Shown here: positions 1,990-38,668 of the stretch, piece after piece
How the letters are laid out: each line of letters opens with the position of its first letter
How positions within the stretch are numbered: the first letter of the stretch is position 1
NCBI GenBank assembly: GCA_963769425.1
Contig: CAVYLP010000003.1
Span: forward strand, 192,001-256,000
DNA from: Candidatus Bathyarchaeota archaeon
GTDB lineage: Archaea > Thermoproteota > Bathyarchaeia > TCS64
Reading direction: 5' to 3'
DNA: 64,000 nucleotides
Translations under genes and position numbers: made by a program
Notes under the pieces: model-generated
What the model was told of the DNA's origin: nothing
The model's input: only the letters and a program-made list of their open reading frames with translations
Database searches by the model: none

Positions 1990-3012
1990 ATGTTTCCGAG
2001 GATGTTGGGGCCCGTGGATTTCAGCGATCTCAAGGACCATCTAAGGGGCAAGGTCTCAATTCTGTGCCACCACAACGCGGACCCGGACGCCATCGGGGCC
2101 GCATACTCGATGGAGAGACTAATCCACACCCTCGACCCAAACGCCGTGACGGAGATTCTCTACCCAGATAGCGCCAGTCTGCTAGCGGAAAGGATGATAA
2201 GCCACTTCAAGATCGAGGCCTCGCCTCACCCAAAGATAATGGGCGCAGACGTCGTCCTGGTAGTTGACACTGGGAGCCTGATCCAACTGGAGGTGCTCCA
2301 ACCCATGCTAAAGACTGGCGCCGCACGGGTCTTCATCGACCACCATGGAAGGGACGACGAAATTGCGAGAATCGCCGACGTTTACATCGTCGACGAGTCA
2401 GCGGTAGCGACTTGTGAGATCATCTACCAGTATTGGCGCTCCCTGGGGCAGAGTCCATCGAAGGACGTAGCGGAGGCACTGCTTCTAGGGATAGCCTTCG
2501 ATTCCAAACACTTCGCCATTGGTACGCCGAGGACTTTCAGGATCATCGCGGAGCTTATGGAGTTGGGGGCGACCCTGAGCGGGGCGCGTGAACTTCTCCA
2601 GGGCGTGATGGATGTCTCGGAGAGGCTCGCCCGCCTAAAGGCAGCGCAGAGGCTCACCATCTACCGGATGGACCCGTGGATCGTCGTCACGTCCAACCTG
2701 GGTTCATTCCAGTCCTCAGCCGCGAGGGGCATACTCAACCTCGGCGCAGACGTCGCTATCATAGCCGGGAATGAGAAAGAAGAACTCAAGGCTAGCCTAC
2801 GATCCACGGAGGAGTTCTATCGGAACTCCGGGATTCACCTCGGGGAAGACGTTACAAAGCCACTATCCGAACCCTATAAGGGAGCGGGTGGAGGACACCC
2901 TACTGCAGCAGGGATAAACGGCTTTGGTGAGGCTGAGAAATTCCTCGTGGATGCGGCTGAGACTATAAAGGCGAAGCTGGGTCAGCCAAAGAAGGACGTA
3001 GTATCCTCTTAA
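1990..3012 (+). CDS. DHH/DHHA1 family phosphoesterase
   Basis: HHNADPDA, VVDT, IDHH and GGGH motifs. Confidence 0.9.
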   Translation: MFPRMLGPVDFSDLKDHLRGKVSILCHHNADPDAIGAAYSMERLIHTLDPNAVTEILYPDSASLLAERMISHFKIEASPHPKIMGADVVLVVDTGSLIQLEVLQPMLKTGAARVFIDHHGRDDEIARIADVYIVDESAVATCEIIYQYWRSLGQSPSKDVAEALLLGIAFDSKHFAIGTPRTFRIIAELMELGATLSGARELLQGVMDVSERLARLKAAQRLTIYRMDPWIVVTSNLGSFQSSAARGILNLGADVAIIAGNEKEELKASLRSTEEFYRNSGIHLGEDVTKPLSEPYKGAGGGHPTAAGINGFGEAEKFLVDAAETIKAKLGQPKKDVVSS

Positions 3013-3111
3013 ACTTGGGCAAGCTTTGAGGACTCCTTCAATTCACTATTATATGTGTAACTATTATATCTCGGGTGTAAGACTAAGAAGAAGAAATCGG
3101 CGGTTAGTCCC

Positions 3112-4845
3112 ATGGGCAGAGTCAGCGTCGAGGGCCTGTGTTATAGCTACCCGAACACCCCCGATCTAGCCCTGAGGGACATCAACCTCCAGATAGAGGA
3201 AGGCGAATTCATCCTACTCACCGGTCCAAGCGGATGCGGCAAGACTACTTTTTGCCGATGCCTCAACGGTCTCATTCCCCACTTCTACAGCGGCGAGATG
3301 AAGGGGGACATAAAGATCGACGGCCTCTCCACAAGGGACCACCCCACATATGAGCTAGCCAAGCACGTCGGTCTCATATTTCAGAACCCCGACAACCAAA
3401 TCTTCTCCCTCACCGTCGAGAAGGACATAGCCTTCGGTCTAGAGAACATGGGTGTGCCAAAGCCGAAGATGGTCTCGGAGATAGACTGGGCGATGGGGCA
3501 GGTCGGGATCACATCACTCAGGGAGAGGGGTACACACGAGCTATCCGGAGGCCAGAAGCAGCGCCTCACAATAGCCAGCATTCTCGCGATGCACCCCGGC
3601 GTCATTGTTATGGACGAGCCCACCGCCTTCCTAGACCCCGTCGGTGCCGAGAAGATATTCAACGTGCTCAAGACCCTCAACCGGGAGCATGGCATAACCA
3701 TCCTCCTCATAGAGCACCGGATGGATCTCGCAGTCAAGTACTGTGGCAGGATAATCGTATTCAACGAGGGCCAAGTAGTAAACGATGGGAGACCCCGAGA
3801 TATCTTCACGGCGGACGAGACTCGCCTCATCGGCGTCGGCATCCCCCGCATGGTCGAGCTCGGCAGGAGACTCCGACAGAGAGGGTACCAGCTAGAAATC
3901 CCCCTAGATTCCGACGAGGCATACGCGAGCCTCGTCCCCTACCTGAGGAAGCAAAAGGCACTCAAGCCCCGCAACGAGATCGAGGACCTGAACACCTTCG
4001 TCGGTGAGTACTCAAACAGCCCCCTCATCCAGCTGAAAGATGTTACCTACTCCTATTCAAACGTAGAAGCCCTCGGGGGCGTCTCCCTTTCAATAAACCG
4101 GGGAGAATACGTCGCCATAATGGGTGAAAACGGCGCAGGTAAGACTACTCTAGTGAAACACTTCAACGGACTCCTCCGCCCCAAGAGTGGAACAGTCACG
4201 GTCGACGGCGAAGACGTGTCCACGAAGAGCATCGCCACCATGGCGCGCAAGGTGGGCCTCGTATTCCAGAACCCCGACGACCAGCTATTCGCCGAAGACG
4301 TGGAGGAGGAGATCAGCTTTGCCCTTCGGAATTTCGGTTACGAGGAAGCCGTAATAAAGGAACGTGTAGACTGGGCTCTAAACCTCCTCGACATAGAGCG
4401 CTACAAGAAGTCCAGCCCCTTCATCCTCAGCGGCGGGGAACGGAAACGTGTGGCGCTCGCATCGATCCTCGCGTGGAACCCCGATGTCCTCGTCCTAGAC
4501 GAGCCCACCGTAGGACAGGACTATGGGCAGAAGGAGAGGCTCAAGCACTTCCTCATGCAACTGAGGACCCAAGGGAAGACTGTCGTTATAGTAACCCACG
4601 ACGTCGAGTTCGTTGCAGAGAGCCATCCCCGCATCCTCCTAATGTCCCAGGGTAAAGTAGTCGCGGACGGCCCGACGAAGAGGATAATGACTGACTCTAA
4701 GAGCCTCGAGGCCAGTAGCGTGGCGCCTCCAGAAGTCACGAAACTCTTCACCAAACTCGCCTCCTATGGCCTCCCCGCTGATGTTCTCGACGTCGACGAG
4801 GCCATCGAGCTGCTCACTAAGAAGATGAAGGGGGGGCAGAAATGA
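3112..4845 (+). CDS. ecfA: ECF transporter ATPase with fused EcfA-EcfA' domains
   Basis: Two ABC domains: GPSGCGKT/LSGGQ and GENGAGKT/LSGGE, each with an FQNPD Q-loop. Confidence 0.9.
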   Translation: MGRVSVEGLCYSYPNTPDLALRDINLQIEEGEFILLTGPSGCGKTTFCRCLNGLIPHFYSGEMKGDIKIDGLSTRDHPTYELAKHVGLIFQNPDNQIFSLTVEKDIAFGLENMGVPKPKMVSEIDWAMGQVGITSLRERGTHELSGGQKQRLTIASILAMHPGVIVMDEPTAFLDPVGAEKIFNVLKTLNREHGITILLIEHRMDLAVKYCGRIIVFNEGQVVNDGRPRDIFTADETRLIGVGIPRMVELGRRLRQRGYQLEIPLDSDEAYASLVPYLRKQKALKPRNEIEDLNTFVGEYSNSPLIQLKDVTYSYSNVEALGGVSLSINRGEYVAIMGENGAGKTTLVKHFNGLLRPKSGTVTVDGEDVSTKSIATMARKVGLVFQNPDDQLFAEDVEEEISFALRNFGYEEAVIKERVDWALNLLDIERYKKSSPFILSGGERKRVALASILAWNPDVLVLDEPTVGQDYGQKERLKHFLMQLRTQGKTVVIVTHDVEFVAESHPRILLMSQGKVVADGPTKRIMTDSKSLEASSVAPPEVTKLFTKLASYGLPADVLDVDEAIELLTKKMKGGQK

Positions 4846-31894: not shown

Positions 31895-33091
31895 ATGAGA
31901 GATCCAATCAGGTTCCTATCCGTTGAGTACCAGGAGTTAGTCGATAAGGCCTTGGACTGGAGGCTGAAGACGATTCAAGGCCCCAGCGAACCTGTCGCAA
32001 TGATCGATGGTAGGGAGGTGCTGATACTCTGTAGCAACAACTACCTCGGGTTAACGACCCACCCGAAACTCAAGGAGGCCGCCATCCAAGCGACCCTCAA
32101 ATACGGCGTCGGCTCGGGGGCTGTGAGGGCGATCTCGGGTACCATGGATCTGCATATGGAACTCGAAAGAAGGCTCGCCAAGTTCAAGAGATCAGAAGCA
32201 TCGCTCACCTACCCGACCGGGTTCCAAGCAAACTCAGGGCTTATCCCCCAGCTCGTTGGCGAGCAAGACCTGATCATCAGCGACGAACTCAACCACGGCA
32301 GCATTATCGATGGAGTCCGCCTTTCGAGAGGGGAAAGAACAGTCTACAAACACAACGACATGAATGACTTAGCCAGAGTCCTAAGCGACGCCGAAAAGCA
32401 CGTCCCCCCGTACAGGCGGATCCTAATCATCACCGACGGCGTCTTCAGCATGGACGGAGATATAGCACAACTTGATCAAGTCGCTAAACTAGGCGCTGAA
32501 CACGGTGCCATGGTGTACGTCGACGACGCCCACGGCGAGGGTGTCCTAGGAGAAGGAGGCAGGGGAATCCTGAGCCACTTCCACCTCGACCATAAGAAAG
32601 TACACGTCGAGATGGGGACCTTCAGCAAGGCCTACGGAACTGTGGGAGGTCACATTTCCGGCTCAGAAGACCTTGTAAAGTTCGCGTGGAACAAGAGCCG
32701 AACATGGCTACTAAGCTCATCCCAACCTCCTCCAGTAGTGGCATCAACAATAGCCGCGATAGATGTCCTCGAGAAGGAGACGGAGCATGTTAAGAACCTG
32801 TGGGAGAACACACGATACTTTAAAAAAGCCGTAGAGGATCTCGGCTTCAACACTGGTATGTCGCAAACACCGATCATTCCGATTATTGTCGGTGAAAGTC
32901 ACGTGGCAAAGACGCTAGCGGATAAACTGTATGAGAGGAGCATCTTCGTGGTCCCCATAGTCTTCCCCATGGTATCGCGAGATAAAGCAAGGATCAGGGT
33001 CCAGATGAGCGCCAAGCTAAATAAAGGACAACTGGACGATGTGATATCAAAGCTCGAGACTATAGGACGAGAAATTAAGATAATCGGATAA
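31895..33091 (+). CDS. kbl: Glycine C-acetyltransferase (2-amino-3-ketobutyrate CoA ligase)
   Basis: CSNNYLGL, NHGSIIDG, DGVFSMDGD, DDAHG, GTFSKA; paired with tdh. Confidence 0.88.
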   Translation: MRDPIRFLSVEYQELVDKALDWRLKTIQGPSEPVAMIDGREVLILCSNNYLGLTTHPKLKEAAIQATLKYGVGSGAVRAISGTMDLHMELERRLAKFKRSEASLTYPTGFQANSGLIPQLVGEQDLIISDELNHGSIIDGVRLSRGERTVYKHNDMNDLARVLSDAEKHVPPYRRILIITDGVFSMDGDIAQLDQVAKLGAEHGAMVYVDDAHGEGVLGEGGRGILSHFHLDHKKVHVEMGTFSKAYGTVGGHISGSEDLVKFAWNKSRTWLLSSSQPPPVVASTIAAIDVLEKETEHVKNLWENTRYFKKAVEDLGFNTGMSQTPIIPIIVGESHVAKTLADKLYERSIFVVPIVFPMVSRDKARIRVQMSAKLNKGQLDDVISKLETIGREIKIIG

Positions 33092-33133
33092 ACTTCATCT
33101 TTTGTCTCAGATATTATAGACGTAAATTAATAT

Positions 33134-33914
33134 TTATTTGAAATACTCGGTTATTCGCTTGCCGCCCCTGAGTTTCAAGACCTCGGCACAATACTGGGGC
33201 GACAGTGCCTTGAACTCGTAACCCAAAGAGGCTAGGACCTCCTGTGCCCCATCGGCCAAGGTGGGGGCGACGAGGATTGCACGAACCCTCCGGTTAGAGT
33301 CGAGGTTTATGACGTCCATGTACTTCTTCAGCTGGAGCACCGCCTTCTTTGTCGCCTTGACTCTCTTTATTTCAATGACTGTCAGCACGTTGTCTCTGTC
33401 CACGCCTAACACGTCTATGAACCCGGGGTCGACCGGTTTCTCGCTGGTGATCGGCCTGAAACCCTCTTCGATAATGGATGGCTGGGTTAAGATTGCTTGC
33501 TGCATGTCGTTTTCGGTTGCATAGAGGTTGAACGCGCCGGAGTCTTTCAGGTCGAGTATTGAGACCAGCTTTAAGGCTGGTGAAGGTGATCTCCATGACC
33601 TCGTGGTCCTTCCTACGATAGACGCGTATGACAAGTTTATCGTTCCGAAGCTTCGTCTGGAAGAGGCTACCGGGGGGTTGCCAGTTTACCGGGGAATAGT
33701 CTTTAGGTCGGTGGATTAGGGCTGAGCCATCCGATTTGAGAATGATTAATCGCTCTCCTGGTCCGAGGCTTGAGCTAGCTCTACCCTCGTATTCTACGCT
33801 GCAGTTTCCAGCTAGGATCACCAGCTTCTTGTGAGATATCCCTGACTTCACGACGGTGAGCGCTTCTTCGAGGGAGGGTGCCTCGAGGATGGTCTGCCTC
33901 GGTGCCTTTTCCAA
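33134..33914 (-). CDS. nucS: Mismatch-specific endonuclease NucS/EndoMS, frameshift near 33570
   Basis: CSVEYEGRASS, KSDGSALIH, PVNWQP in one frame; GFIDVLG, IEIKR, QLKKY in the other. Confidence 0.88.
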
Positions 33915-33916
33915 GG

Positions 33917-34642
33917 TTAGCCCACGCTTGTCACTATCGTCGTCCAAGGTGCGTTCATCTTCAGGTCGGTGAGTTTCAGGTCCTCGATGGCTCCATTTAG
34001 CATGAAGGTGCCGTGGCCGGGGTATATTCGGTCTGGGCATTCAGCGATAAGTCGTTTCAGACTCGTCTTCCACGCAGCAAGATCGAACCCCGGACCATTG
34101 ATGAACCCGAGCCGTCCCGTGGTTGAAGCGATGTCTCCGGTGAAGATCGCTTTTTTTCCATCTCTTTCCGTCATACTAACTGAGATACAACCAGGTGTGT
34201 GTCCGGGGGTATGGATGATGCCGAGATGAGCTTCACCCACGTTTAGATGGTCATTATTCTCAAGAACTCCGTCTAGCTTTGGCGCATTGAACATGATTCC
34301 TCTGGCTTTTGCCATTTCCACGAGAACGCACTCATCGAGGTTAGCTATGGAGTCCGAATCGCTCTTGTGGGCTACCAGTCTACATCCCGTTAGCTCCTTG
34401 AGTTCGTTTGCACCACCGATGTGGTCGAAGTGGCAGTGAGTCAGGATTGCGGTTTTAATGGCTCTCGGATCGAATCCGTCCTCTTTCACATTCGCCAAGA
34501 TCCTCTTTACGCCGAGTCCGCCCCCGGCATCTATGAGGATCGACTCCCCCCCGCAGTCAATCAGGTAGACGTTGCAGTCCCCAGTCGCGGACAAGCCATA
34601 GGCGGAGCCTCCGACGAGATAAACGGAATCGGTCAGCTTCAT
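33917..34642 (-). CDS. MBL-fold metallo-hydrolase
   Basis: THCHFDHIGG, TPGHTPG, FTGD, PGHG; start taken at MKLTDS. Confidence 0.88.
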   Translation of the reverse strand: MKLTDSVYLVGGSAYGLSATGDCNVYLIDCGGESILIDAGGGLGVKRILANVKEDGFDPRAIKTAILTHCHFDHIGGANELKELTGCRLVAHKSDSDSIANLDECVLVEMAKARGIMFNAPKLDGVLENNDHLNVGEAHLGIIHTPGHTPGCISVSMTERDGKKAIFTGDIASTTGRLGFINGPGFDLAAWKTSLKRLIAECPDRIYPGHGTFMLNGAIEDLKLTDLKMNAPWTTIVTSVG

Positions 34643-34916
34643 TGAAATCGAATAAAGGTCGCCCGCGGAGGTTAAAAATCGTTGGCTGAGGTCGGAAAAT
34701 GTCATGGACGAGATTCTTGGCCAATGCCTCGCTTCGATCAACCGATCTGCCTATTGAGGCCACGTTCATCTTTCATCAAATTTGCACGCCGTAGGAAATA
34801 GTGTACGAGGATCGAGTCTAGATCGGTGGCCATTGCCTAGGCCTTATAAAATGTATACCTTCAAGATTAAGGCCACAAAATCTATCCAAGAGTCTAAAGA
34901 CCAGAAACTATCACAA

Positions 34917-35093
34917 CTATGTATCAGGGTTAAGGTCCCTAAACTGGGACGTCATCTTGGGAAGATGAACGGCGTTAAACTCCTCCAGCTTATCTGGGTG
35001 TGTTAGCTTAACGTGGAATCTTACGCCACCCGGGCTCGACGATTTCCTGGGGCAGTAAGGGCAGCTAAACTCTCTTGCCTGTTGAGTGCTCAA
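34917..35093 (-). CDS. 58-aa C2H2 zinc-finger microprotein (not in ORF track)
   Basis: TTG start with GGAGGG upstream; MSTQQAREFSCPYCPRKSSSPGGVRFHVKLTHPDKLEEF... gives F-x-C-x2-C-x12-H-x4-H. Confidence 0.8.
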   Translation of the reverse strand: MSTQQAREFSCPYCPRKSSSPGGVRFHVKLTHPDKLEEFNAVHLPKMTSQFRDLNPDT

Positions 35094-35193
35094 GCAAACC
35101 CTCCGATTTAAGTATAGTGACTATGGTCTATAACACTTTTTCTCGATCCCAACTTGAGTTTGGATTCGCTTACTCCATCGCTTGGAACATCCA

Positions 35194-35212
35194 CGGCGGA
35201 AAATCGTTATCC
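35194..35212 (+). promoter_or_regulatory. 19-bp leader, copy 1 (CGGCGGAAAATCGTTATCC), BRE/TATA-like
   Basis: Exact direct repeat of 35461-35479; close variant at 57611-57628 upstream of the C/D sRNA. Confidence 0.55.
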
Positions 35213-35398
35213 CATCCTACTAGGAACCCAACTCCAGCTACTAGGAACCAGACACCGCCACAAGGAACAAGACACCGCTACATGGAACACGTGACCCCGC
35301 TGCTAGGAACAGCCAGACACCGCCACACGGAACATTGACCCCGTAGCTAGGAACACATGACGCCGCCACTAGGAACAGTGACACCGCCACTAGGAACA
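35211..35398 (+). repeat. Tandem array A: 9 imperfect 20-23-bp units, consensus GACMCCGCYACWAGGAAC
   Basis: GGAA cores at 35223, 35244, 35264, 35284, 35306, 35329, 35350, 35372 and 35393. Confidence 0.92.
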
Positions 35399-35419
35399 CT
35401 GTCCCATCCACGGGGACAG
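35399..35419 (+). other. Hairpin closing array A
   Basis: CTGTCCC-ATCCACG-GGGACAG, perfect 7-bp stem. Confidence 0.5.
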
Positions 35420-35460
35420 ACTAGGCGAATGCTCCCTATACCCGCTGCCCGGAATTGGCG

Positions 35461-35479
35461 CGGCGGAAAATCGTTATCC
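35461..35479 (+). promoter_or_regulatory. 19-bp leader, copy 2
   Basis: Identical to 35194-35212. Confidence 0.55.
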
Positions 35480-35690
35480 TATGCTACAAGGAATCCCATT
35501 CCTAGCTACAGGGAAGAAACTACCAGCTACAAGGAAGAAAATACCCGCTACCAGGAAGAAAGTTCCAGCTACAAGGAAGAGACAATACCAGCTACTAGGA
35601 ATTGAATTCCAGCTACCAGGAAGAAACTACCCGCTACAGGGAAGAAGACAATACCAGCTACAAGGAAGTAAGTTCCAGCTACAAGGAATA
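35480..35690 (+). repeat. Tandem array B: 10 units of 21-24 bp, consensus TWCCMGCTACHAGGAAGAA
   Basis: GCTAC cores at 35483, 35505, 35526, 35547, 35568, 35591, 35612, 35633, 35657 and 35678. Confidence 0.92.
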
Positions 35691-35709
35691 CGAGTCAGAG
35701 GAGTGGGCC

Positions 35710-36018
35710 ATGCGAGGAAGTACATATTCTCAGACTCTGAGGCTAGGGGATTAACTCGCCGGGGAGACGGAGGACGAGTCATATCCCTACATGCACCCCT
35801 ATCTCAGGGATGAGAGCTTCATAGCCAACCTCTAGGCGAGGCAAACCGGCAAGGCCTTCAACGAGATGGCAAAGCTCCTGTACTTGGCCTCAAAATACAG
35901 GGGGAGCACCTCACTCGTCACGGCCCCCAAGTTCGACCAGGTCAAGAACATCAAGCATCTAACCGACCACCTCCGGCGTATGAAGGCCAGAGACCTGGGC
36001 CTCTTCATACATCGATGA
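35710..36018 (+). pseudogene. Decayed N-terminal fragment of a viral terminase large subunit
   Basis: One frame from ATG 35710: ...HPYLRDESFIANL*ARQTGKAFNEMAKLLYLASKYRGSTSLVTAPKFDQVK. It shows a terminase Walker A (xRQxGK) and a VxAPxxxQ strand, with in-frame stops at 35752 and 35833. Confidence 0.65.
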
Positions 36019-36086
36019 GCGGAACATGAAGCCACGGGAGAGGCTTTAATAATCTAATCGATTCTAAACCACTCCGGTGGCCCCTA

Positions 36087-36443
36087 ATGAGTGAGAAGGA
36101 ATCCAAGGTCATCTGGCTCACCTGCCCCGACTGCGGCTCGAAGATAGGGATAATCCTCTCCGTCGGGAAGGCTACAGCTATAGCCCACCACGTCGAATCG
36201 GAGACGGTTGAGGAGACTGAAAACTGGCCCCCCTCCAGCTTCGAGGAGAAACTCAAAGCAGCCGGCGTCGACACGAGTTTATTAAACATCGAGGACGGCG
36301 AGGAAATGATTCTGGTCAGCCCAAAGAAGTTTCTGGGTGACCTATGGGGTCCGATAAATGAGACCATGCGCTCCCTTAGTGGGTCATGGATAAGGGAGGG
36401 CAGAGATAGTCGATGGGAGATCAAGAAAAACCCAAACCAATAA
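36087..36443 (+). CDS. Hypothetical protein with N-terminal CxxC (Zn-ribbon-like) motif
   Basis: 118-aa ORF with LTCPDCGSKI; TATA-like TTTAATA about 40 bp upstream. Confidence 0.7.
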   Translation: MSEKESKVIWLTCPDCGSKIGIILSVGKATAIAHHVESETVEETENWPPSSFEEKLKAAGVDTSLLNIEDGEEMILVSPKKFLGDLWGPINETMRSLSGSWIREGRDSRWEIKKNPNQ

Positions 36444-36573
36444 TATCCATTTCTTTTTAACCCCCATTTTTAGATTATTTTCAACCCAGTTTAGGGTAGG
36501 GTAAACACTTCGAAACTTGCTCGAAAAAAGGGGCTTGACAAGACTTTATTCAGCTAAGGAGCACTTTAAAGCC

Positions 36574-37126
36574 ATGCAACAGGCCAACGCGGTCTACAAT
36601 AACCTCACCATACAAGTTCCTTCAAGAGGGGAGGCAGACAGCCTCCTGCAGGACGGCTACGGGCACATCAAGCGAGAAGAGGTGTTACATCCTAGAACCA
36701 TACGAGGCCCTGTATCTTGTTGAGAAGGAACGCCTCACAGTCATCGACGAGGAAGAAAGGCATATCCTCTCATTCCAGGAGATCCTGAACAGGGAACTAG
36801 TTAACGATCCCATGTTGTGGACGAGGTACATCATCTATAGGGACATAAGGGGGAGGGGATTCGTTGCCAAGTCGACAGCGAAAAATGACGTATCCTTCAG
36901 CGTTTACGAAAGGGGGGATTACCCGAAGAAGGCCCCCAGCTACGAATTATACGCACTGGTCGAAGGAATGCCCGAAACACTGGGACACATCGAAGAAAGG
37001 CTAGTCGAAGTCAGGGACTCCGGGCGGGCGCTTAAACTGGCCGTGATAGATAGAAGAGGAGAGCTTGTTTACTACGGACTTGATAGGCTTGAGCCTGAGA
37101 GACTAGGCGCCGATACACTCGAGTAG
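36574..37126 (+). CDS. endA: tRNA-splicing endonuclease subunit (probably structural, non-catalytic), frameshift near 36662
   Basis: DGYG...LEPYEALYLVEK, RYIIYRDIRGRGF, LAVIDRRGELVYY. Confidence 0.8.
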
Positions 37127-38395
37127 CTTGGAACGCTCAACCTTCACTTGGGCCCCAGTCTTCATATCCCGAATAGTCAGGCATCCTTCCGCGAGCTCAC
37201 GCTCACCGATTATCACGACCTTCCTCACGCCCTTCTTGTCAGCGTACTCCAACTGCTTCGAGAAGCGTCTACCGAGGAGATCGACCACCGTGGAGACTCC
37301 GACCGCCCTCAGGTCTTGAGCGACTTTTATCGCTTCACTTTTCACCGAGTCGGATATCGAGGCGATCAGCACGTCTACTCCGAGCTTGATTTCTTTGAAG
37401 CCTCCCTTTGTCTCTATCAGTGGGACGAGACGATCGATACCGAAGGATATTCCGGTTGCCGGTGTGCTCCCGCCGCCCATGAGATTAATGATCCCGTCAT
37501 ATCTCCCACCTCCAGCGATGCTTCCGTAGTCCTCGTAACCCTCTGCTAGAACCTCGAAGACTGGTCCAGTATAGTAGTCCAGACCTCTAGCGAGGCTGAG
37601 CTCGACAACGATGTACTCGGCGTAGCCAAAGGACTTCGCGTAATTAATTAACTCTCTAAGAGCCTTCAGACCGGCAAGTCCTTCAGGAGAATCAGTAAGT
37701 TTCCCCTCAGTCTCATCCAGAACCTTGGCAGGAGTACCGGTTTGGGCTAGTGATTCTAAGAGTAGATTAGCGGATTCCGCTTCCACGGACAGCTTCGCAA
37801 GCTCCTGGACAACTCCGTCTTTCCCTATTTTCAGCAGCTTGTCCACTGCCCGAATGGCTTCCAATGTGCGGTCCTGTGGAACCCCTGCTTTTTTGATGAA
37901 TGCCTCGAGTATTCTCCTGTCGTTGAGCTTTATCACGAAGCCCTCGAAGCCCATCTTCTTGAGGCAGTCGACCGCGGCAGATAGGACCTCTGCGTCAGCT
38001 ATTGAGCCACTTACACCAACCGTGTCGGCGTCGGCCTGCCAGAACTCTCTGAAACGCTTCTCGCTGGGGTTTTCGTATCTCCAGACGGTCCCCATCGCGT
38101 ACCTCTTGAAGGGCATCTGGAGTTCGCGATGCACGGCCACCACGCGTGCAAGGCTCGTCGTTAGGTCGAACCTGAGTCCAAGCTCCCTGTCCGCCTTATC
38201 CTTGAAGTAGTAGATCTGGTTTATCACGTCCTCCCCGCTCTTCAGCTTGAGTAGCTCCCAGCTCTCGAAGGCGGGTGTTCCCAGGGGCTCGAAGCCGTAG
38301 GCCTCGTAGACCCCCCGTATCTGGTCCAGGACCCAGTTCCTCTTGTACATCTCCTCGGGGAGGAAGTCCCGGGTACCGCGTGGTGGCTGGTACAT
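37103..38395 (-). CDS. hisS: Histidine--tRNA ligase
   Basis: PRGTRDFLP, LRFDLT, RFREFWQAD, LARGLDYYTG and GGGRYD. Confidence 0.96.
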   Translation of the reverse strand: MYQPPRGTRDFLPEEMYKRNWVLDQIRGVYEAYGFEPLGTPAFESWELLKLKSGEDVINQIYYFKDKADRELGLRFDLTTSLARVVAVHRELQMPFKRYAMGTVWRYENPSEKRFREFWQADADTVGVSGSIADAEVLSAAVDCLKKMGFEGFVIKLNDRRILEAFIKKAGVPQDRTLEAIRAVDKLLKIGKDGVVQELAKLSVEAESANLLLESLAQTGTPAKVLDETEGKLTDSPEGLAGLKALRELINYAKSFGYAEYIVVELSLARGLDYYTGPVFEVLAEGYEDYGSIAGGGRYDGIINLMGGGSTPATGISFGIDRLVPLIETKGGFKEIKLGVDVLIASISDSVKSEAIKVAQDLRAVGVSTVVDLLGRRFSKQLEYADKKGVRKVVIIGERELAEGCLTIRDMKTGAQVKVERSKLLECIGA

Positions 38396-38668
38396 TTTGA
38401 CCGAGCCTAGATTGAAGGGATACCAGAAAAAGGTTCCGCGTTCACTTGCCGCCGATGTGGTCCTGAAGAAGAGGTCATCTATTCTTTTCCATTAATGCTC
38501 GCTCTCCTCCGGCCTCGACGTAATAGCCTTGGTGATCTTCTCCATGATGTTCAAAACAAGAGCCGGGCTAGAATAGTTAATGACTATGCTAGGTTTAATG
38601 AATCAAAATACTATGTAAGAAAAACTAGTTTCTAAGAAAAAAACCGGGAGTCTCCTTGATCCTCGGTT

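Follow-up and report, generated by a model that had tools for sequence, protein, structure and literature searches.

The twin repeat arrays described here lie in a window of 64,000 nt (the whole stretch of DNA analysed) from a contig of Candidatus Bathyarchaeota archaeon, and they are part of a decayed tailed-virus-like element that is inserted in the archaeal chromosome. The ~21-bp unit of the arrays derives by multiplication from a short site, of which related genomes have one copy before a small gene next to that for the terminase large subunit (TerL). This gene is named YIFT here, after the motif MRxYIFT..ERRRL..WL of its product. It is tentatively proposed that the units are candidate binding sites for a predicted YIFT dimer at the YIFT promoter, and that they were multiplied in this lineage. 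An earlier note on this DNA had listed protein-binding sites among its readings; these remain the best reading, with the binding itself putative.

In three genomes of the same genus, G008, G002 and G012, the two flanks of the window lie only 16-25 bp apart, with positions 1-1250 and 2136-4501 of the query matching adjoining stretches. Because the flanks are directly adjacent in these genomes, the block between them is an insertion (Table 1). No target-site duplication was recognised when the window junctions were compared with the same-genus sequences. A Logan contig joint from 35104 to 36038 in run X3, with a side of 22, gives weak support for an empty site. Several other Logan joints, among them 35698 to 36016 in runs X1-X3, have sides of only 21-42 letters and probably derive from other copies of the family. 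The C2H2 and CxxC proteins encoded on either side had been put forward as binding partners of the arrays. They are products of host genes that lie ~110 bp apart in the same-genus genomes without the insertion, and are therefore unlikely partners.

Table 1. Features of the inserted block and of its flanks, in window positions.
Feature	Positions	Strand	Basis or remark
Host small C2H2-type ORF, left flank, outside the element	34917..35093	-	Conserved; adjoins the CxxC gene in relatives
Inserted block, ~880 bp, boundaries +/- ~15 bp	35150..36030	+	Absent from same-genus G008, G002 and G012
Degenerate unit 5' of leader A	35171..35188	+	Repeat search, family comparison
Leader A, CGGCGGAAAATCGTTATCC, BRE/TATA-like box	35194..35212	+	Exact duplicate; resembles the tRNA promoters of the genome
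Array A, 9 units, GGAAC-type arms, core CCGCYACNAGGAAC	35213..35400	+	Repeat searches, core motif scan; core starts 35217, 35238, 35258, 35278, 35300, 35323, (35344), 35366, 35387
Perfect-arm unit / hairpin CTGTCCC-ATCCACG-GGGACAG closing array A	35399..35419	+	7-bp stem
Unit 5' of leader B, ATACCCGCTGCCCGGAA	35438..35454	+	Repeat search (family D4), core motif scan
Leader B, identical to leader A	35461..35479	+	Exact-duplicate search
Array B, 10 units, GGAAG/GGAAT-type arms, core CCAGCTACNAGGAAG	35480..35690	+	Repeat searches, core motif scan; core starts 35484, 35506, 35527, 35548, 35569, 35592, 35613, 35634, 35658, 35679
Remnant of a YIFT gene start, now dead, with the reading RKYIFSDSEARGL	35715..35753	+	No start codon left, sequence divergent further on; falls in the C-terminal part of ORF 35481-35813
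TerL N-terminus pseudogene fragment with in-frame TAG	35776..36006	+	tblastn to TerL residues 17-96, 70% identity, E 2.9e-24
Host CxxC protein gene, right flank, outside the element	36087..36443	+	Own TATA-like box at ~36040-36052

The viral origin that the earlier note had entertained is borne out by the two gene remnants directly 3' of array B, the dead start of the small gene and the TerL pseudogene fragment, which starts 86 bp past the array. TerL is identified by a match to phrog_2 at 4.5e-34 and by Terminase_6N/6C. The counterpart of the window YIFT start in paralog C6:763165 reads RKYVFTDIERSRL. The YIFT HMM gave the window remnant a weak match (C3:227715, E 3.8) that is not significant alone. 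Between arrays A and B, the window spacer has no significant homology to the end of an ABC/GNAT gene (p 0.24-0.40); the spacers of paralogs C6_323 (p=0.02) and C5_80 do have significant similarity to the 3' end of the ABC/GNAT gene that lies upstream. A protein-coding repeat was also considered. The 110-aa ORF at 35481-35813 has no counterpart of at least 80 aa in a 95.5%-identical paralog, and the coding reading is rejected because the ORF is not kept there and because unit periods of 20-24 break the frame.

Tandem Repeats Finder detects two arrays with a period of 21, one of 7.6 copies at 35240-35401 and the other of 8.6 copies at 35504-35688, and a second repeat search of the window returns the same two repeat families. 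The two modules of 9 and 10 units with an identical 19-mer, as first described, are confirmed, and so is the degenerate unit ahead of each leader. The 19-mer has exactly two copies in the window, at 35194 and 35461, and is matched in 0 of 100 shuffles. In most members of the family one unit likewise lies ~39 bp before the first unit that follows the leader. The core positions reproduce exactly the periods previously reported (21,20,20,22,23,21,22,21 in A; 22,21,21,21,23,21,21,24,21 in B). The helical phasing that had been read from them is weak: 112 spacings have a mean of 21.82, an sd of 1.02 and a range of 20-24. This spread fits tandem duplication of a ~21-nt unit better than strict two-turn phasing. 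The distal units had been thought to be homogenised within each module; whole-module copying explains them better, as the same unit-by-unit variants are found in paralogs C6:762648 (95.5%) and C6:900231 (95%). Of the two inverted repeats said to close the modules, the first is real and looks like a unit whose arms match perfectly. The second, at 35729-35741, is present in the window, where it sits within the decayed coding remnant of the YIFT start, but it is not conserved in the 95.5%-identical paralog C6:762648-763179. The arms of the window arrays pair poorly (mean helix 3.15 bp). The unit is thus asymmetric, which is unusual for the site of a symmetric dimer.

A CRISPR array likewise has a leader in front of partly palindromic repeats at regular spacing. 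As the earlier note had it, the window arrays have no unique spacers, which in CRISPR would be of ~30-40 bp, and they are rejected as CRISPR; the unit spacing of 20-24 bp is the repeat itself, and the 2-9 nt linkers recur between paralogs. The statement of the note that cas genes are lacking nearby also holds, since Pfam finds none among 75 flanking ORFs of 18 loci. Cas1-like fragments are found elsewhere in the genome (C4:211375 and C6:728135), and crude k-mer scans of the genome detect no CRISPR array. A role as Argonaute guides was likewise set aside, as no Piwi was found. The same flanking ORFs of 18 loci include no Rep, Orc or primase family, and an iteron-type origin is rejected because ~20 copies per chromosome are incompatible with a single origin.

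About 20 such loci are present in the genome. The leader pattern has 19 genome copies against 0 for a control pattern, and a genome scan with the core motif returned 23 clusters, 5 of which were set aside as coding or chance. A logo from 158 units displays the shared core (T)CCC-N-G-CTAC-WA-GG-AA, and across diverged subfamilies this core is far better conserved than the linkers. Two further array-bearing regions are likewise missing from congeners: the block at C6_762 measures 877 bp compared with 238 bp in G002, and the C6_900 region 565 bp compared with 100-130 bp in G012 and G015. Of 24 array or YIFT loci, 7 have a tRNA gene no more than 3.5 kb away vs 2.45 expected (P about 0.009, with the threshold chosen afterwards). 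Complementarity of the units to tRNAs is limited to 6 chance-level CC..GTAG matches in 42 tRNAs. No flanking gene recognised by Pfam is shared among the 75 ORFs of 18 loci, the neighbours being unrelated housekeeping genes. In an all-against-all tblastx of 17 loci homology is confined to the arrays, among the matches listed. If the proposed reading holds, this array family explains the dominant tandem-repeat class of the genome.

A BLAST of the arrays against 40 relatives gave no match, and in the 70 other genomes of the family the leader pattern gave no true array, only one chance match with 1 mismatch. The earlier note had held that its proposal would fall if related genomes carried no homologous array; this does not apply, since G002, G017, G018 and G021 carry single units or shorter arrays. 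When 401 genomes of the class were scanned with a triple-core pattern, real arrays were seen in G002 and G021 and a coding match in G012, and the reversed control matched in 3 genomes, once each. Related arrays are also present in at least 5 metagenome contigs (L183, L190, L194, L206 and L210) of 31 pattern matches, and array-like pieces occur in Logan contigs of 4 DNA runs. L136, a Candidatus Bathyarchaeota MAG, holds an array of the family; it is the one archaeal record among the matches listed, nearly all of which are bacterial and uninspected. Viral contigs gave 0 matches to the leader pattern and 17 contigs with the triple-core pattern, none homologous; L329 is a look-alike in an unrelated phage. 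The literature consulted, including passages of PMC10848311, contains no description of such arrays; supplements may list repeats of Bathyarchaeia viruses.

These distributions bear on whether the arrays are simply inert debris without any present function. On this view a viral hairpin site would have expanded through slippage during replication, and the resulting arrays would have been dispersed by integration, by segmental duplication and by gene conversion. In favour of debris, the YIFT and TerL genes beside the arrays are mostly disrupted, congeners lack these insertions, the flanking genes offer no common partner, and no true array was detected with the leader pattern in the 70 other genomes of the family. 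Against it stand the conservation of the unit core above that of the linkers, the leader that is in register in all 20 copies before arrays, the persistence of arrays beside decayed genes, and the related arrays and array-like pieces in metagenome contigs and runs. All of these are also compatible with a recent spread without selection. Selection on the arrays is unproven, because most of the YIFT genes linked to them are dead. Overall the inert alternative is considered unlikely.

The preferred reading, that of binding sites for YIFT, draws on gene order in related genomes. In relatives an ABC-ATPase/GNAT gene is followed by one hairpin or inverted repeat with a GCTAC loop, then by YIFT, a coiled-coil ORF and TerL. 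This order is seen by Pfam and PHROG annotation in G071, and also in G041, where the cluster lies beside a tail-tube-like protein and a 1008-aa lectin-like protein and where the hairpin is the single one of its kind within 19 kb. A single hairpin with a GCTAC or GTTAC centre is found 10-80 nt upstream of about 10 of the 29 YIFT genes examined in relatives. The repeat unit is homologous to this single site 5' of YIFT in the virus-like clusters of relatives. In the genome under study, arrays followed by YIFT starts are present in the window and at C6_762, C2_143, C6_641, C1_184, C1_235, C3_378 and C4_352. In G018:C14 the same leader, GAAAAATCGTTGTTCC, stands before one unit, which is followed by a Shine-Dalgarno (SD) sequence and by YIFT. 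The corresponding stretch of G017:C18 starts with that leader and continues through a degenerate unit and a hairpin unit to an SD and YIFT, and G002 carries two units. The G018 and G017 layouts place the unit between a TATA-like box and a start codon, i.e., in an operator position.

The YIFT product is 60-100 aa long and begins with MRxYIFTxxERRRLxxWL. The family comprises 172 representative clusters at E<=0.001 and is present in 41 of the 71 genomes of this Bathyarchaeia family. An AlphaFold model (pLDDT 85.8) displays an extended N-terminus followed by two helices, the second of ~33 residues. A homodimer is predicted with an ipSAE of 0.78, the best control reaching 0.00; the partner has a pLDDT of 88 and the runs agree in at least 97% of contacts. 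The mark of 0.78 was reached by 20 of 30 solved homo-pairs and by 1 of 23 single chains. None of 77 members reaches a Pfam cut-off. There is no PDB sequence match, Foldseek returned nothing at E<=0.001, the best VIA match has a Z of 3.8, the Atlas gave nothing, and a word-index search found 1 homolog. As these fold searches are uninformative, the terms DNA-binding and RHH-like rest on the size, the strand-helix-helix order, the predicted dimer and the gene position. Operators of RHH repressors are comparable in kind, namely the 21-bp operators of Arc/Mnt, the tandem met-boxes of MetJ and the omega heptads. The modelled extended N-terminal segment, two helices and dimer of YIFT, with tandem sites at its own predicted promoter, would fit such a system. 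However the modelled helix 2 is much longer than in RHH domains, and the fold searches, uninformative as they are, found no RHH protein.

The leader was compared with a promoter PWM built from the upstream regions of the 42 tRNA genes of the genome. The 20 leader copies that precede arrays score 3.95-10.96, at the 99.4th to 99.99th percentile of the background and in the same register; leader A scores 4.84 (99.6th percentile). The tRNA sites average 11.8 on the same PWM. The leader thus resembles the BRE/TATA promoters of the tRNA genes and is a predicted promoter. It is always oriented toward the array and YIFT.

With a promoter-like leader in this orientation, a role at the RNA level, akin to the ncRNA alternative of the earlier note, is also to be considered. 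The array would form a long 5' leader of the YIFT mRNA, or a stand-alone non-coding RNA where YIFT is dead, and its GCUAC-centred motifs would bind YIFT or a host protein and so tune translation or stability, or act as a sponge. Among 10 relatives the two arms of the hairpin co-vary, with pairing in 80.8% of cells vs 63.3 +/- 3.4 in shuffled rows (reached by 0 of 500) and 29-44% in slid controls. Both sides have changed in 8 of 11 hairpin pairs, four of the 10 rows have a G-U beside the loop on the sense strand, and relatives conserve both the loop and the N-terminus of YIFT, which includes an ERRR stretch. Such co-variation of stems around a conserved centre suits a folded single strand (RNA) no less than a duplex operator and weighs against the preferred reading. 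However the co-variation test is partly circular, as the rows were picked because they form hairpins. The 158 units of the genome have no excess of sense-strand G-U (51 sense vs 75 antisense-type pairs), and the arms of the window arrays give only ~3 bp. Over all arrays the mean helix of the units is 3.62 bp vs 3.37 +/- 0.08 in an arm-swap control, and the hairpin potential is strong only in GGTACC-type arrays. Folds of whole arrays, for array A and array B on both strands, are no stabler than shuffles (z +0.10, -0.09, +0.74). There is no Rfam match, and cmscan of 33000-38000 at E<=10 gave 3 chance-level matches, none in the arrays. One unit lies upstream of the promoter box and would therefore be outside such a transcript. 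An RNA-level element is judged distinctly improbable.

Linkage to TerL raises a further alternative, that of a packaging site. YIFT, alone or with the coiled-coil ORF, would be a small-terminase-like specificity factor and the unit a terminase assembly site of the pac or cosB type; the arrays would be multiplied recognition sites and the dispersed copies relics or pseudo-pac sites. Terminase recognition sites include cosB R1-R3 of lambda with gpNu1 and the pac hexamer arrays of P1, and small-terminase binding sites repeated beside terS/terL are the rule in these phages. Here too, short sites stand immediately upstream of a small gene that precedes TerL, as repeats beside the terminase fragment in the window and as one hairpin in the gene order of G071 and G041. 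The uniqueness of the site within 19 kb of the G041 cluster also speaks for packaging, as do matches of 3 of the 77 YIFT members to Terminase_7, a small-terminase family in Pfam, although these are weak and not significant (best E 0.048). The genome also retains one intact YIFT-TerL pair, at C2:93277-95193.

This pair is at the same time an argument against packaging. Intact YIFT copies are located at C2:95193, C4:352123, C3:87514 and C3:131963, and C2:95193 (beside the intact TerL), C3:87514 and C3:131963 have no unit within 700 bp upstream, so that arrays are absent at the intact pair. No recognisable capsid genes are near it; a PF05065 search, which is insensitive for archaeal capsids, found none. 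In IMG/VR, 40 contigs with a related TerL (30-44% identity) have neither arrays nor YIFT. The intact YIFT copies without a unit and these contigs also count against the preferred reading of YIFT binding sites. Typical small terminases are longer than YIFT, which does not belong to a recognised small-terminase family, and there are 9-10 units here vs 3-7 in the lambda and P1 sites. The position of the unit between a TATA-like box and a start codon suggests transcription control instead. A packaging site is for these reasons regarded as an unlikely explanation.

Centromere-type systems have a similar arrangement. The parC site of pSK41 consists of 20-bp tandem repeats, that of R1 has 11-bp repeats flanking the promoter, and tubC-TubR is similar. 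As with parC-ParR and tubC-TubR, the repeats here are head-to-tail and of ~20 bp, the promoter (from sequence) lies within the set directly 5' of the operon, with one unit upstream and the rest downstream, and immediately after them come genes for a small, predicted-dimeric protein and for an NTPase motor, in this order. However the motor is a terminase and not the partition NTPase ParM, ParA or TubZ, the arrays are scattered over the chromosome in ~20 copies whose genes are mostly dead, and nothing points to a partition function.

Dispersed modular intergenic repeats, such as the pneumococcal BOX elements, REP/BIME and MITEs, offer another comparison. Shared with these are multiple intergenic copies, head-repeat-tail modules, a variable number of internal units and a lineage-specific spread. 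The differences are that no terminal inverted repeats or target-site duplication are seen and that the arrays derive from a viral gene neighbourhood. The REP/RAYT type was rejected: the Y1 (IS200/IS605-type) transposase PF01797 is absent from the genome, and control genomes gave matches.

Under the preferred reading of YIFT binding sites, the element would have carried a short cis-site, an inverted repeat or hairpin with a conserved (A/G)GCTAC centre, before YIFT, the coiled-coil ORF and TerL; in several genomes this cis-site lies directly behind a BRE/TATA-like leader. In the present lineage tandem duplication would have expanded the ~21-bp site, in the interval from the promoter box to the start of YIFT, to as many as about 10 units, and whole modules would afterwards have been copied to about 20 chromosomal places. 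Each unit would bind a YIFT dimer. Bound cooperatively along the array, at sites around and downstream of the promoter, YIFT may repress its own operon or adjust its expression. In the window both YIFT and TerL are dead, so this copy is no longer able to control a gene. Any remaining action could only be in trans, as a multi-site sink for YIFT from intact copies elsewhere. A more far-reaching version, which we consider very improbable, is that the ~20 promoter-bearing arrays and the intact YIFT-TerL pair would provide host-wide high-avidity sites for a virus-derived packaging or regulatory protein. Such sites might be pseudo-pac sites that start the packaging of host DNA, in the manner of gene-transfer agents or lateral transduction, or decoys, made of DNA or of transcribed RNA, that sequester the YIFT of a related virus on its entry as a form of antiviral defence.

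If the proposed reading holds, the arrays carry a caution for scans of other genomes, since decayed proviruses can leave behind a layout that resembles a CRISPR array devoid of spacers. A cis-site and an unannotated small-protein family, the latter spread over the 172 sequence clusters and 41 genomes given above, would then be identified, both from the vicinity of the packaging genes of uncultivated archaeal tailed viruses. The arrays would then show how a viral site gets multiplied and scattered over a host chromosome, and they would offer a handle on a virus group without a cultured member.

The twin arrays of the window, A and B, each lie behind an identical 19-mer leader, and their ~21-bp units were recovered by Tandem Repeats Finder (TRF) and by a second repeat search. 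The unit counts and periods given in the earlier note were exactly recovered from core positions (motif C[CT][AG]CNNGG), and the 19-mer CGGCGGAAAATCGTTATCC is duplicated as described, at 35194 and 35461; shuffles of the window gave zero matches. Of the inverted repeats thought to close the modules, the hairpin at 35399-35419 is real, and the one at 35729-35741 is present but is not conserved in a 95.5%-identical paralog. The argument for phasing by two helical turns is weak: family spacing is 21.82 +/- 1.02 bp (n=112), and a range as wide as 20-24 bp does not sustain it in a strict form. The observation itself is real and larger than first described, and its strangeness is mostly explained.

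Features of the window at and near the twin arrays
Feature	Position	Strand	Description
NucS_N domain ORF	33372-34040	-	
ORF resembling NucS C-terminal nuclease part	33134-33634	-	
Array A	35240-35401		~21-bp units
Array B	35504-35688		~21-bp units
YIFT dead start	35715-35753		reads RKYIFSDSEARGL; between array B and TerL fragment
TerL N-terminus fragment	35776-36006		residues 17-96, 70% identity, E 2.9e-24, in-frame stop

Further copies are found by blastn in the genome assembly (2.55 Mb; 6 contigs, C1-C6), of which the window is C3:192001-256000. C6:762648-763179 is another twin module (95.5% identity) and C6:900231-900482 a B module on its own (95% identity), and there are remoter copies on C2, C4, C5 and C6. 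A degenerate leader pattern has 19 matches in this genome vs 0 for the pattern reversed as a control; 70 further genomes of the family yielded no true match. A motif-cluster scan yielded 23 clusters, 5 of which were set aside as coding or chance, and TRF shows the array family to dominate the tandem repeats of the genome. Arm sequences vary by subfamily (GGAAC/GGAAG/GGAAT, GGTACC, GGTATA, GGATCA, GGAGTCGGAAC); the core (T)CCC-N-G-CTAC-WA-GG-AA (logo, 158 units) and the leader GAAAAAWCGTTATMC are common to the subfamilies. The A-spacer-B layout is also displayed by locus C6_323 (loci are named by contig and kb), which is just 77% identical; thus the twin layout is older than the recent duplications. 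Elsewhere in the genome, a 127-128-bp tandem repeat outside the window (C3:4668-6013; 10.5 copies, 91-92% match) is probably coding, and a second dispersed repeat class forms three short arrays, at C3:86754, C6:126307 and C6:314011, with 7-9 copies each of the 10-bp AGACAGAAAT or its complement.

Related arrays occur in 5 of the 31 metagenome contigs that match the leader pattern, and array-like pieces in Logan contigs from four DNA runs. One 186-nt Logan contig (runs X1-X3) joins array-B-end-like sequence to 36016 (35698->36016, 317 bp skipped); it may be another family copy or a shorter variant of the window insertion, and is ambiguous since its short side has only 24 letters. In G021, whose closed genome represents another genus, the 20-bp CCTACTAGGTACGACCAGTT is repeated in tandem as four perfect copies behind an AT-rich box (C1:~1008585; L039 1505-1575). 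Their core is identical to that of the array family, and their perfection suggests a very recent multiplication.

The arrays have no match in Rfam, and RNA folding of both strands showed them no more stable than shuffles. A coding function was rejected, the 110-aa ORF over array B being without conservation in the paralog. Genes flanking 18 array loci are unrelated housekeeping genes; among the 75 flanking ORFs there is no member of an integrase, transposase, Rep or cas family, in agreement with the earlier statement that there are no cas genes. In the genome as a whole, neither a Y1 transposase nor a Piwi protein was found, k-mer scans found no CRISPR array, and the single tyrosine integrase is distant from all arrays. 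Two Cas1-like frames are present in this genome (C4:211375-212170 and C6:728135-728584), one split in two pieces and the other with an in-frame TGA.

In the same-genus genomes G008, G002 and G012, only 16-25 bp separate the match to window 33900-35149 from that to 36035-38400 (83-86% identity in G008). Thus ~35150-36030 is an insertion that separates a small C2H2-type ORF from the promoter of a gene for a CxxC protein. These two are conserved host genes, and no target-site duplication was seen at the insertion. The array regions C6_762 (block of 877 bp vs 238 bp in G002) and C6_900 (565 bp vs 100-130 bp in G012 and G015) are likewise missing from congeners. On either side, the NucS endonuclease at 33134-34040 is in two overlapping frames, as would result from a frameshift, from an error in sequencing or from a gene that is split, and a 104-aa tRNA-intron endonuclease catalytic-domain ORF (36812-37126) converges on the histidyl-tRNA synthetase gene (37103-38395) with ~24 bp of overlap.

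The 300 bp 3' of array B have one further match in this genome, at C2:94456-94637, where a terminase large subunit (TerL) of 469-497 aa is intact (phrog_2, E 4.5e-34; Terminase_6N/6C). There TerL is preceded by an intact small gene of 79 aa that begins MRSYIFTDQERRRLRQWL, here named YIFT after its protein start (MRxYIFT..ERRRL..WL); the window retains fragments of both. The C2 module (C2:93277-95193; L230 9275-11194) also has small ORFs. Host genes flank it to left and right within ~2 kb, and no capsid or portal was recognised nearby; it is a terminase module on its own or else a provirus in deep decay. A second TerL, at C6:24-25 kb, is broken. YIFT starts, intact or decayed, are found 3' of the arrays at C6_762, C2_143, C6_641, C1_184, C1_235, C3_378 and C4_352, and array-free intact YIFT genes at C2:95193, C3:87514 and C3:131963. 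Most array-linked genes are dead, which leaves room for reading the arrays as inert debris, a reading that we judge unlikely. Of 24 array/YIFT loci, 7 have a tRNA gene at a distance of 3.5 kb or less vs 2.45 expected (P ~0.009, the threshold having been chosen afterwards), a pattern compatible with insertion of the integrase type and later decay. About six spaced copies of CATACCCTACNGGGTATAG in an IMG/VR contig of an unrelated phage (L329 350-530) resemble the GGTATA subfamily unit; with neither YIFT nor a related TerL nearby, they were judged a chance look-alike.

Though it is without annotation, YIFT is a real family. A six-member profile matched 172 representative clusters (E<=0.001) among 1.84 billion proteins, and the gene is present in 41 of 71 genomes of the family. 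Pfam has no family for it, 3 of 77 members weakly matching the small-terminase family Terminase_7 (best E 0.048); no PDB sequence match and no informative match in fold searches were found. The AlphaFold model (pLDDT 85.8) has an extended N-terminus (1-7) and helices at 8-20 and 25-57. A homodimer is predicted with ipSAE 0.78 vs 0.00 for the best control; 20 of 30 solved homo-pairs reach this mark, as does 1 of 23 single chains. At least 97% of contacts are shared between runs (pLDDT 88), and N-terminal residues are in the predicted interface. From its size, shape and gene position, we infer that YIFT binds nucleic acid.

In the relative G071 the gene order is a 482-aa ABC-ATPase/GNAT fusion, YIFT, a coiled-coil ORF and TerL. 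In the relative G041 the same module has as neighbours a tail-tube-like protein and a lectin-like protein of 1008 aa, which places the element among relatives of tailed viruses. Such viruses have been described for Bathyarchaeia (PMC10848311); the accessible part of that account makes no mention of arrays like these. The fusion of ABC-type ATPase and GNAT acetyltransferase (~485 aa) lies directly upstream of YIFT/TerL in both relatives (L285 22-1470 in G071; L319 11147-12610 in G041). Its conserved C-terminus reads ..SQTKAYLYWCRDW, and remnants of this end are found upstream of the arrays C6_641, C1_235 and C5_80. Resemblance to its 3' end is found in the C6_323 spacer (p 0.02) and upstream of C5_80 (p 0.000), and is not significant in the window spacer (p 0.24-0.40).

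In ~10 of 29 relatives' loci examined, YIFT is preceded by one hairpin or inverted repeat, whose arms of 7-10 bp enclose a GCTAC or GTTAC centre; within 19 kb of G041 there is only one such hairpin. In aligned rows its arms co-vary (80.8% of cells paired vs 63.3 +/- 3.4 shuffled and 29-44% in slid controls, with both-side changes in 8/11 pairs), in a test that is partly circular, the rows having been picked for forming hairpins. The window-array unit has the same centre and register, with pairing around CTAC at -4/6, -5/7 and -6/8 in 81%, 58% and 64% of units. On this basis we take the arrays to be tandem multiplications of the single hairpin site 5' of YIFT.

The leader resembles the tRNA promoters of this genome (gaaa-NN-TTTAWAW). 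A PWM was derived from 42 tRNA upstream regions, and tRNA sites average 11.8 on it; the 20 array-preceding leaders score 3.95-10.96 in one register, at the 99.4th-99.99th percentile of background. G018 belongs to another genus; its YIFT start comes after the same box, GAAAAATCGTTGTTCC, then a single unit with perfect arms and a Shine-Dalgarno (SD) sequence. In G017 the same box leads into a degenerate unit, a hairpin unit, SD and YIFT, and in G002 a T-rich box is followed by two units and YIFT. The simplest view of the leader, given this order, is that of a promoter for YIFT. The unit occupies the stretch from TATA box to start, which is where repressors of archaea act.

A role at the RNA level appears quite improbable: the leader promoter, the arm co-variation and a conserved loop would agree with it, but there is no sense-strand G-U excess (51 vs 75), the arms are only ~3 bp in the window arrays, and one unit lies upstream of the promoter. 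We tentatively prefer to regard the units as predicted binding sites of the YIFT dimer at YIFT's own promoter, which would have multiplied in this lineage, whole modules spreading afterwards; the window copy, its own genes lost, could act only in trans. The same facts underlie a pac-like interpretation, in which YIFT would be a packaging specificity factor, and which seems to us doubtful. The arrays are a virus-derived cis-site, multiplied and scattered. They are a variant of a known theme, that of a repeat array with a small binding protein and a motor gene; the theme is already known, and the array variant is new.
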